This document shows positions 53,150 through 53,743 of a stretch of DNA of 64,000 nucleotides, one piece after another (the first letter of the stretch is position 1; the number at the start of each line of letters is the position of its first letter). This stretch comes from Escherichia phage Nernie, in sequence record PP925835.1. The stretch is one strand, 5' to 3'. The translations under genes were made by a program, and so were the position numbers. The notes below the pieces were generated by a model. The model saw only the letters and a program-made list of their open reading frames with translations. It had not been told where the DNA came from and ran no database searches.

Positions 53150-53743
53150 ATGAATATTGAAGATCAAAAAGTACGAGCTTTAGAAGTATTACGTATGTGC
53201 CAACTGGTAGATCCGTTTGCAATTGTAGCTGGCGGCGCTGTACGTGACTGGCGATTAGAGAAACCTGCGCAAGATATTGACATTTACTTGCGTATGCCTA
53301 ACCACAATACACTCGTACTAGTAGAGAAATTTTTGATGTTGGGTGTTGGTGCACGTAATGTTAAACAACTTACTAAGCAAACAGAACACACTTATGCCGA
53401 ACTACCACATTTGAAATGGGTATTTGAAGCATACTATAAAGATCTTAAGTTTAACTTTATGATCATGGAAGAAGGTGTACGCAGTGAAATCGTATGGAAC
53501 TTTGATGTAGCTATTTGCCTGTGTTACTGGGATGGTCAAAATTATGTATATCATCCAGATTTTGAATTTGCACTGAAAACTAATATTTGTACTATTAATC
53601 ACCGATACACAGGTAAAGAAGCACACGTCCGTAAAATGGCAGAACGTTTCCCTATGTTCCGCTTTGTAAAAGACGTTTTCATTCCCAAAGAACCAGAAGT
53701 ACGTACACTGGATTCATTTAACAACGAAGAATTTAAGATTTAA
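53150..53743 (+). CDS. Pol-beta-superfamily nucleotidyltransferase (CCA-adding-enzyme head-like)
   Basis: AGGAVRDWRL...DIDIY resembles the GGaVRD...D.D nucleotidyltransferase motif of tRNA nucleotidyltransferases. Confidence 0.5.
   Translation: MNIEDQKVRALEVLRMCQLVDPFAIVAGGAVRDWRLEKPAQDIDIYLRMPNHNTLVLVEKFLMLGVGARNVKQLTKQTEHTYAELPHLKWVFEAYYKDLKFNFMIMEEGVRSEIVWNFDVAICLCYWDGQNYVYHPDFEFALKTNICTINHRYTGKEAHVRKMAERFPMFRFVKDVFIPKEPEVRTLDSFNNEEFKI

Follow-up and report, generated by a model that had tools for sequence, protein, structure and literature searches.

A small nucleotidyltransferase gene beside the DNA polymerase

We analyzed a 64,000-nucleotide stretch of DNA from Escherichia phage Nernie (PP925835.1), here called the window, and concentrated on one gene on its plus strand (53150-53743), as given by the list of open reading frames and by the sequence. 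This gene is the ortholog of Phi92_gp158 of phage phi92 and encodes a protein of 197 amino acids, beginning with an ATG codon, that we refer to as the NTase (for nucleotidyltransferase). The comparisons below relate this protein to Gad2, a phage protein that counters the Gabija defense system, and set it apart from the enzymes that mature tRNA 3' ends. An AGGAG ribosome-binding site (53140-53144, plus strand) precedes the start codon by 5 nucleotides, and the same site is annotated as such in phi92. The window comes from a myovirus of the phi92-like group (Justusliebigvirus, Stephanstirmvirinae). Over the 6 kb surrounding the gene it is 98-99% identical to phi92 and about 55 relatives, and the protein itself is 98.5-100% identical across 55 phi92-like phage records.

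Several labels are already attached to this protein. It gives a full-length profile match to phrog_1614 (E=2e-34, residues 7-193), RefSeq calls Phi92_gp158 a "nucleotidyltransferase", and several GenBank records name it "putative tRNA nucleotidyl transferase/poly(A) polymerase". The Pfam Gad2 family, phrog_1614 and the nucleotidyltransferase annotation are all prior knowledge, and nothing in the assignment is categorically new.

Directly upstream lies the gene for a family A DNA polymerase (50433-53012, plus strand; Pfam DNA_pol_A, phrog_17). Downstream follow, on the same strand, a gene for a 132-amino-acid protein of unassigned function (53787-54185; phrog_16560) and one for a 315-amino-acid protein resembling single-stranded DNA-binding protein (SSB) (54202-55149; phrog_4477). 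An initial annotation of the window, made from the sequence alone, had placed the NTase between the polymerase and the SSB-like gene. The polymerase is indeed its immediate neighbor, but the 132-amino-acid reading frame intervenes on the other side. The order of NTase, 132-amino-acid gene and SSB-like gene is the same in phi92 and in phAPEC8.

The NTase has a class II head-domain fold with an amide at the third metal-binding position

The initial annotation had recognized in this reading frame an AGGAVRDW...DIDIY motif of the type found in the head domain of CCA-adding enzymes, a reading that the sequence, a structural model and Foldseek all bear out. Motif A comprises A27-G28-G29-A30-V31-R32-D33-W34 and D42-I43-D44-I45-Y46 (53228-53287, plus strand), and contributes the glycines that bind nucleoside triphosphate (NTP) and two metal-binding aspartates. 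Residues 27-46 read AGGAVRDWRLEKPAQDIDIY, a pattern with no second occurrence when the window is translated in all six frames. The arrangement is that of class II motif A, GGxVRD followed by DxD, and it aligns with the GGxVRD...DxD segments of 6IBP, 3AQL and 1MIV and of E. coli CCA and poly(A) polymerase I (PAP I). Across an alignment of 121 diverse relatives, G28, G29, D42 and D44 are invariant, while Q6, A10, A27, A30, R32, D33, W34, Y82 and K162 are conserved in at least 90%.

An AlphaFold2 model built on the relatives' alignment reached a predicted local distance difference test score (pLDDT) of 91.8 and a predicted template modeling score (pTM) of 0.86. Its seven strands fit the class II sheet in the order 3-4-5-2-1-6-7, a topology specific to that class (PMC11646218). 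When the model was compared with the PDB using Foldseek, every one of the best 39 matches was a class II CCA-adding enzyme or a bacterial poly(A) polymerase, with 175-200 aligned columns. The modeled helix at residues 158-166 is the counterpart of the first neck helix, and the protein ends at residue 197, after this one helix of the neck. These results show that the NTase has a class II-type head-domain nucleotidyltransferase fold in which the site for NTP and Mg2+ (G28-G29, D42, D44) is conserved, and catalysis is predicted.

The third catalytic position is different. In class II topology, strand beta-5 adjoins the DxD strand, and in the middle of this strand the h[DE]h pattern expected of class II enzymes reads F-N-F in the NTase. 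We assigned N102 (codon 53453-53455, plus strand) to the third-carboxylate site by alignment and strand order, not by three-dimensional coordinates. The same column in 153 relatives holds Gln in 121 (79%), Asn in 23 and Asp in 8, so that an amide is present in 94%. N102 aligns with D115 (I-D-V) of Gp22 from the Drulisvirus fHe-Kpn01, which has been named as the h[DE]h catalytic pattern of that protein (PMC7291057), and with Q89 of a validated Gad2 from Brevibacillus. The initial annotation had taken loss of the second and third catalytic acidic residues as the sign that its assignment was wrong. That loss is partial: the third position is Asn. The amide looks like a family feature rather than decay, because it is conserved and is common to functional Gad2 proteins.

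An Asn at this site in the NTase, with Gln or Asn in nearly all of its relatives, could also be the mark of a catalytically dead protein that uses the fold only to bind nucleotide or nucleic acid. We regard such a protein as extremely improbable, since motif A keeps its two glycines and two aspartates without exception in 121 diverged sequences. Furthermore, the third position is held as an amide and does not drift, and a few members, along with Gp22, keep an Asp there.

The NTase lacks the defining features of CCA-adding enzymes

We compared the remaining motifs of the NTase with those of class II enzymes. Profile-profile alignment to E. coli CCA and PAP I was reliable only over motif A and the preceding helix, and motifs B and D were mapped with low confidence by forced greedy hhalign to single sequences. 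A search seeded with E. coli CCA gave only near-identical enterobacterial enzymes and no diverse class II profile. In this mapping, the counterpart of motif B (RRDFTIN in class II) is N117-F118-D119-V120-A121-I122-C123 (53498-53518, plus strand), from which the two arginines are missing; the register is identical against E. coli CCA and PAP I. F118 is conserved in 89% of relatives and D119 in 27%. The counterpart of motif D (EDxxR), located in the first neck helix, is a degenerate E157-A-H-V-R161-K162 ... F167 (53618-53650, plus strand), where REDPVRML of PAP I is matched to KEAHVRKM by greedy hhalign, again with low confidence. Columns 157, 158 and 161 are variable, while K162 and F167 are conserved in 95% and 87% of relatives. 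Neither an RRD nor an ED..R string occurs in the 197-residue protein, RRD falling on N117-F118-D119, and the motif B and motif D columns are not conserved among relatives.

The overall architecture and profile scores are similarly distant from the family. The rest of the neck, the body and the tail are missing from the NTase; the initial annotation had already remarked on the lack of body and tail in a protein of this length, and the small size proves typical of its relatives. Pfam PolyA_pol (PF01743) scores 19.1 bits against a cut-off of 23, over residues 26-81 only, and matches just 22 of the 121 relatives at E<0.01. For the NCBIfam CCA equivalogs the score is 15 bits, where the cut-offs lie near 290. 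Direct sequence searches of PDB, NCBIfam and PADLOC returned weak motif A matches or nothing. Compared with the class II tRNA nucleotidyltransferases and PAP I of known structure (1MIV, 3AQL, 6IBP), the NTase has no further neck, body or tail, reads NFD for RRD, has a degenerate EDxxR, carries Asn where those enzymes have Glu as the third carboxylate, and falls below the Pfam gathering threshold. Judged by that family's own sequence criteria, the NTase is not a CCA-adding enzyme.

The tRNA genes point the same way. We considered whether phage tRNAs might need CCA addition and rejected the idea, as all 15 tRNA genes of a sibling genome encode their own CCA. In addition, fHe-Kpn01 carries a homolog of the NTase but no tRNA genes. 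Together with the missing body and tail, the NFD sequence, the unconserved motif D and the Asn at the third site, these observations speak against the proposal of the initial annotation that the protein repairs tRNA 3' ends.

A looser version of that proposal would make the NTase a minimal RNA 3'-end nucleotidyltransferase, consisting of head and neck only, that repairs CCA or adds poly(A) or oligonucleotide tails to tRNA or other RNA. In structure it comes closest to CCA-adding enzymes and PAP I, its motif A is of the class II type, and, judging by the sibling genome, the phage has 15 tRNA genes. One metagenomic relative lies 2.8 kb from a gene for the RNA ligase RtcB, and several records are annotated as tRNA nucleotidyltransferase/poly(A) polymerase. 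Nonetheless, we consider this explanation unlikely: the parts that bind tRNA are missing, RRD and EDxxR are absent or degenerate, the third carboxylate is Asn or Gln, and PolyA_pol stays below its cut-off. The phage tRNA genes already specify CCA, the host has its own Cca, a homolog occurs in the tRNA-less fHe-Kpn01, and the family profile is nearer to Gad2 than to the cellular class II enzymes. The recurring database label "tRNA nucleotidyltransferase/poly(A) polymerase" can be corrected accordingly, as such proteins fail most of the features that define that family.

Two other groups of small proteins invite comparison. The phrog_1614 "tRNA nucleotidyltransferase" proteins of T7-like and KP34-like phages, such as fHe-Kpn01 Gp22 and Pectobacterium phage PP47 gp28, belong to the same PHROG, are about 180-200 amino acids long and, like the NTase, are encoded beside a family A DNA polymerase. 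Gp22 matches phrog_1614 at E=1.3e-39, and our family profile aligns to it with a probability of 92%. Unlike the NTase, it has an Asp as the third catalytic residue and is nearer in sequence to cellular CCA enzymes (HHpred 99.8%; PMC7291057). The second case is S. pneumoniae NP_344798.1 (PDB 2LA3), a stand-alone bacterial "CCA-adding enzyme head domain" whose function is likewise unassigned; the NTase family profile showed no sequence similarity to it.

The NTase is related to the anti-Gabija protein Gad2

Gabija is found in more than 15% of sequenced prokaryotic genomes by one published figure (PMC10781630). Gad2, or Gabija anti-defense protein 2, is a 400-amino-acid protein of Bacillus phage SPbetaL7 (ORF_159) whose knockout leaves the phage Gabija-sensitive; it has an AlphaFold-predicted nucleotidyltransferase domain and is toxic when expressed alone, and a homolog from a Brevibacillus prophage cancels Gabija defense (10.1101/2023.05.01.538930). 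A protein identical to the NTase carries a precomputed Pfam match to PF26128 "Gad2", unmarked and hence at E<=1e-5, as does its 90% cluster. Most relatives of the NTase carry the PF26128 annotation as well.

To compare the proteins directly, we took the sequence of the validated Brevibacillus laterosporus Gad2 from Supplementary Table 10 of the same study (10.1101/2023.05.01.538930). Using hhalign, the family profile of the NTase aligned to residues 25-142 of this protein with a probability of 94.8% (E=5.2e-8, 114 columns), and pairwise BLASTP of the NTase itself gave E=1e-5 with 24% identity over 117 amino acids. The alignment pairs FDVAIC of the NTase with FDFTVC of Gad2 and N102 with Gln89, and SPbetaL7 Gad2 has the same features. 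As a whole, the NTase family profile is closer to Gad2 than to the cellular class II enzymes. By sequence, these comparisons show that the NTase is homologous to a validated Gabija anti-defense protein and is a member of the Gad2 family. The initial annotation had allowed, as a fallback, for a different kind of nucleotidyltransferase, and the PF26128 match and the alignment to validated Gad2 favor this option.

The two proteins share a phage origin, a predicted Pol-beta nucleotidyltransferase core, the AGGA...D.D.Y sequence, an amide (Gln or Asn) on beta-5, an F-D-x-x-x-C motif and relatives that are toxic on expression. They differ after the glycines, where the NTase has the class II-like R32-D33-W34 and Gad2 has I-T-S, and in their sources, a lytic coliphage for the NTase and an SPbeta-like Bacillus phage for Gad2. 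We also considered whether a neighboring gene supplies the C-terminal domain of Gad2 and rejected this, as nothing similar is encoded in the window: no counterpart of the Gad2 C-terminal part was found anywhere in it, and the full Gad2 architecture is not present.

The family is widespread and diverges rapidly

An exhaustive HMMER scan recovered 522 cluster representatives (E<=1e-3), whereas a word-indexed protein search with the single sequence had found only 2 clusters, so that the exhaustive search was needed. Nearly all representatives are 175-240 amino acids long, with a median of 201; small size is therefore the norm of the family and not a truncation. The NTase gene evolves much faster than its syntenic neighbors. 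Comparison of phi92-like phages with phAPEC8 gives 37% identity for the NTase, as opposed to 79% for the DNA polymerase, 61% for the SSB-like protein and 56% for the 132-amino-acid protein. Its presence also varies between related phages. fHe-Kpn01 carries its homolog right after the DNA polymerase, while none was found when we checked KP34, a related Drulisvirus. In the Autographiviridae, the gene is reported from 37 of 46 Pectobacterium phages versus 60 of more than 500 others (PMC7693777). The fast divergence, the difference between fHe-Kpn01 and KP34 and the sporadic occurrence in Autographiviridae argue for an accessory gene engaged in an arms race.

The genomic neighborhoods are mixed. 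In phi92 and phAPEC8 (Stephanstirmvirinae), fHe-Kpn01, Pseudanabaena phage PA-SR01 and two metagenomic phage contigs, no more than 2.5 kb separates the homolog from a DNA pol A gene. The homologs in ICP1, Vibrio phage 1.101.O and two other metagenomic contigs (L011 and L012) are not near replication genes. These arrangements bear on the idea that the NTase is a replication accessory with no part in counter-defense, a terminal transferase that would work on the ends of phage DNA or on primers during replication or concatemer formation. Its place between the DNA polymerase and the SSB-like gene, the recurrence of DNA pol A nearby in several unrelated lineages and its conservation in all phi92-like genomes would suit such a role. 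We nonetheless judge it very unlikely, as the gene diverges much more rapidly than the surrounding replication genes, is missing from KP34 while present in fHe-Kpn01, is sporadic in T7-like phages and, in ICP1, Vibrio phage 1.101.O, L011 and L012, stands away from replication genes.

Some members depart from the usual form. Five longer relatives (P0059, P0281, P0284, P0103 and P0276; 299-400 amino acids) contain, on the N-terminal side, a module of some 75 residues with a consensus like MKFxVxSPEHSxxIQxxLFxxGYxW...EEYxLV, present in one to three copies. The N-terminal extensions of the longer relatives (284-400 amino acids) matched no Pfam domain and gave no functional clue. At the other extreme, the homolog in Vibrio phage ICP1_2001_A (L003:4959-5535) has 137 amino acids and covers no more than the head strands; a short overlapping reading frame comes after it. 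Several ICP1 records have two hypothetical proteins under the match, and the gene may be split or truncated in ICP1. The ICP1 homolog lies near NAD-salvage genes, encoding phosphoribosyl pyrophosphate (PRPP) synthetase and NadV.

A proposed role in counter-defense

Putting the homology and the distribution together, we favor, with slightly less than even confidence, the view that the NTase is an accessory counter-defense enzyme rather than a tRNA maturation enzyme. The toxicity of its relatives is relevant here. fHe-Kpn01 Gp22 is toxic on expression (PMC7291057), as are SPbetaL7 Gad2 and gp22 of Pseudomonas phage Emajogi; relatives of this last protein carry a Gad2 family annotation. Toxicity in uninfected cells implies a common cellular substrate, and these three relatives argue for a broad cellular target.

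We hold a specific mechanism, which we infer ourselves and do not present as a finding, with less confidence than the role. The NTase would act as a stand-alone nucleotidyltransferase that binds an NTP or deoxynucleoside triphosphate with Mg2+ and transfers a nucleotide to an acceptor that is not specifically tRNA. Template-independent addition at nucleic-acid 3'-OH ends seems the most likely reaction, with exposed ends, nicks or replication intermediates of the phage's linear, terminally repeated DNA as the probable acceptors. On ends modified in this way, nucleases that sense DNA ends, such as Gabija (GajAB), would be unable to act. The terminal repeats of phi92 measure 343 bp, and its DNA ends are therefore linear; Gabija is reported to act at phage DNA ends when RecBCD is blocked (PMC12904381). 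Asn or Gln in place of the third carboxylate suggests chemistry unlike that of a processive two-metal polymerase, such as a single or limited transfer, and the conserved amide may reflect single-nucleotide transfer or a different acceptor. The loss of the ribose-reading RRD, the replication-module context and the toxicity in uninfected cells fit this DNA-end picture without proving it.

Toxicity could also be read as the sign of a host shut-off toxin like MenT or AbiEii, which would add nucleotides to host tRNA acceptor ends or other RNAs and stall translation early in infection. However, overexpression toxicity is common for nucleic-acid enzymes and unspecific, the similarity to MenT is much weaker than that to class II enzymes, and the phage relies on host translation, to which it brings its own tRNAs. 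The NTase matches no PADLOC toxin or defense model, and the combination of a toxin-model match with a toxin-antitoxin gene pair was not found. Such a toxin is in our judgment quite unlikely.

An alternative form of counter-defense would be synthesis of a small nucleotide product to jam a nucleotide-sensing host defense; the product could be a dinucleotide, a cyclic dinucleotide or a capped nucleotide. GajA is reportedly a nucleotide-sensing endonuclease, as Cheng et al. are said to have described in 2021, and this counts in favor of a decoy nucleotide. A precedent exists in the MNT-like phage nucleotidyltransferases that make competitor cyclic GMP-AMP (Ho et al., 10.1101/2022.06.09.495361). 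These anti-TIR-STING proteins, like the NTase, are phage members of the Pol-beta superfamily with a proposed counter-defense function, and are often encoded near DNA methyltransferase or NAD-salvage genes; a DNA methyltransferase gene lies near the NTase as well, and NAD-salvage genes accompany the homolog in ICP1. They form a different clade, however, with a GS-x-AY[GAN]T-x4-SDxD motif and lengths of 250-414 amino acids, and the phi92, phAPEC8 and ICP1 proteins are not on their list. In place of the MNT-like catalytic motif and NP-x-h2[DE], the NTase has GGAVRDW...QDID. We rejected identity with the anti-CBASS nucleotidyltransferases of Ho et al. because motif, size and gene list all differ, and we hold a decoy-nucleotide synthase to be highly improbable.

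Several observations weigh against a counter-defense role for the NTase or against the proposed action on DNA ends. The PF26128 membership comes from precomputed matches, and a local Pfam scan did not return that model. The anti-Gabija role is carried over a remote homology of 24% identity that covers the nucleotidyltransferase core only. Gad2 has 394-400 amino acids compared with the 197 of the NTase, and the C-terminal stretch of about 250 residues that the NTase lacks may carry the target specificity. The NTase belongs to PHROG 1614 and Gad2 proper to 18122. The NTase gene is conserved in every phi92-like genome seen, and is thus core-like within the genus. The nearest solved structures act on RNA, not DNA, and with an Asn at the third metal site, polymerase activity could be weak or missing altogether. 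Finally, a February 2026 review describes the mechanism of Gad2 as still not elucidated (PMC12904381), we found no later paper that resolves it, and action at DNA ends is accordingly our own suggestion.

If the NTase does the same job as Gad2, it amounts to the catalytic core of Gad2 on its own, encoded by a coliphage that is amenable to genetics and has therapeutic relatives, and it would evade immunity by enzymatic modification of a common substrate rather than by stoichiometric binding. A broader proposal is that short head-only Gad2-like enzymes constitute a widespread counter-defense class, in which a site of two carboxylates plus an amide marks nucleic-acid ends or another common cellular acceptor and thereby blinds end-sensing nucleases like Gabija. 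The head-only Gad2-like enzymes comprise at least 522 sequence clusters from many groups of phages, including proteins from phi92-like, phAPEC8-like, ICP1 and T7-like phages and cyanophages. We regard this broader proposal as possible but doubtful; if it holds, Phi92 gp158 would be a minimal, tractable model for the mechanism of Gad2. Should the NTase not be an anti-defense protein, it would be one more small phage nucleotidyltransferase without an assigned substrate.

Other features of the locus and of related genomes

Immediately after the stop codon of the NTase, in the 43-bp gap that follows, lies a near-consensus sigma-70-type promoter (53747-53776, plus strand) with TTGACA, an 18-nucleotide spacer and TATTAT plus a TG extension, matching at 11 of 12 positions. 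Given this location, the 132-amino-acid and SSB-like genes may be transcribed separately from the NTase. The scan for promoters and terminators in the region was uninformative overall, with 4 promoter-like sites versus 5.9 expected, which is not above chance. The SSB-like protein (54202-55149) contains the canonical acidic tip of SSB, DDDIPF, but in an internal position, followed by 15 more residues (APIGLQYGRNFLHCF); its only SSB profile matches are weak and C-terminal.

The DNA polymerase gene has 859 codons in the window (50433-53012) versus 1104 in phi92 (L001:6034-9348). In phi92, alia and EmilieFrey, the match to the polymerase region falls into two pieces spanning about 500-700 extra bases, and the annotation of alia has an HNH endonuclease together with "DNA polymerase, part I". 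The phage of the window appears to be without a mobile insertion that interrupts the polymerase gene in these relatives.

Two metagenomic phage contigs have distinctive surroundings. In L011, an IS605 OrfB/TnpB-like gene (4906-5949) is directly upstream of the NTase homolog, and the gene for RtcB RNA ligase (9339-10565) is 2.8 kb downstream. In L013, a gene matching Pfam PF25705 "Gad1" (L013:1611-2582) is located about 3.4 kb upstream of the NTase homolog, so that a single phage may contain both of the named anti-Gabija families.

In a phage of the same type (L015:2130-4733), a run of glycosyltransferase-like genes, one with a weak match to PF20691 TAGT, is found ahead of the primase-helicase, some 5-8 kb upstream of the NTase. 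At the same place phi92 is annotated with four glycosyltransferases, and it has a dTDP-rhamnose pathway elsewhere in the genome. This run could serve sugar modification of DNA or of another target, and base modification is among the counters to Gabija listed in a review (PMC12904381).

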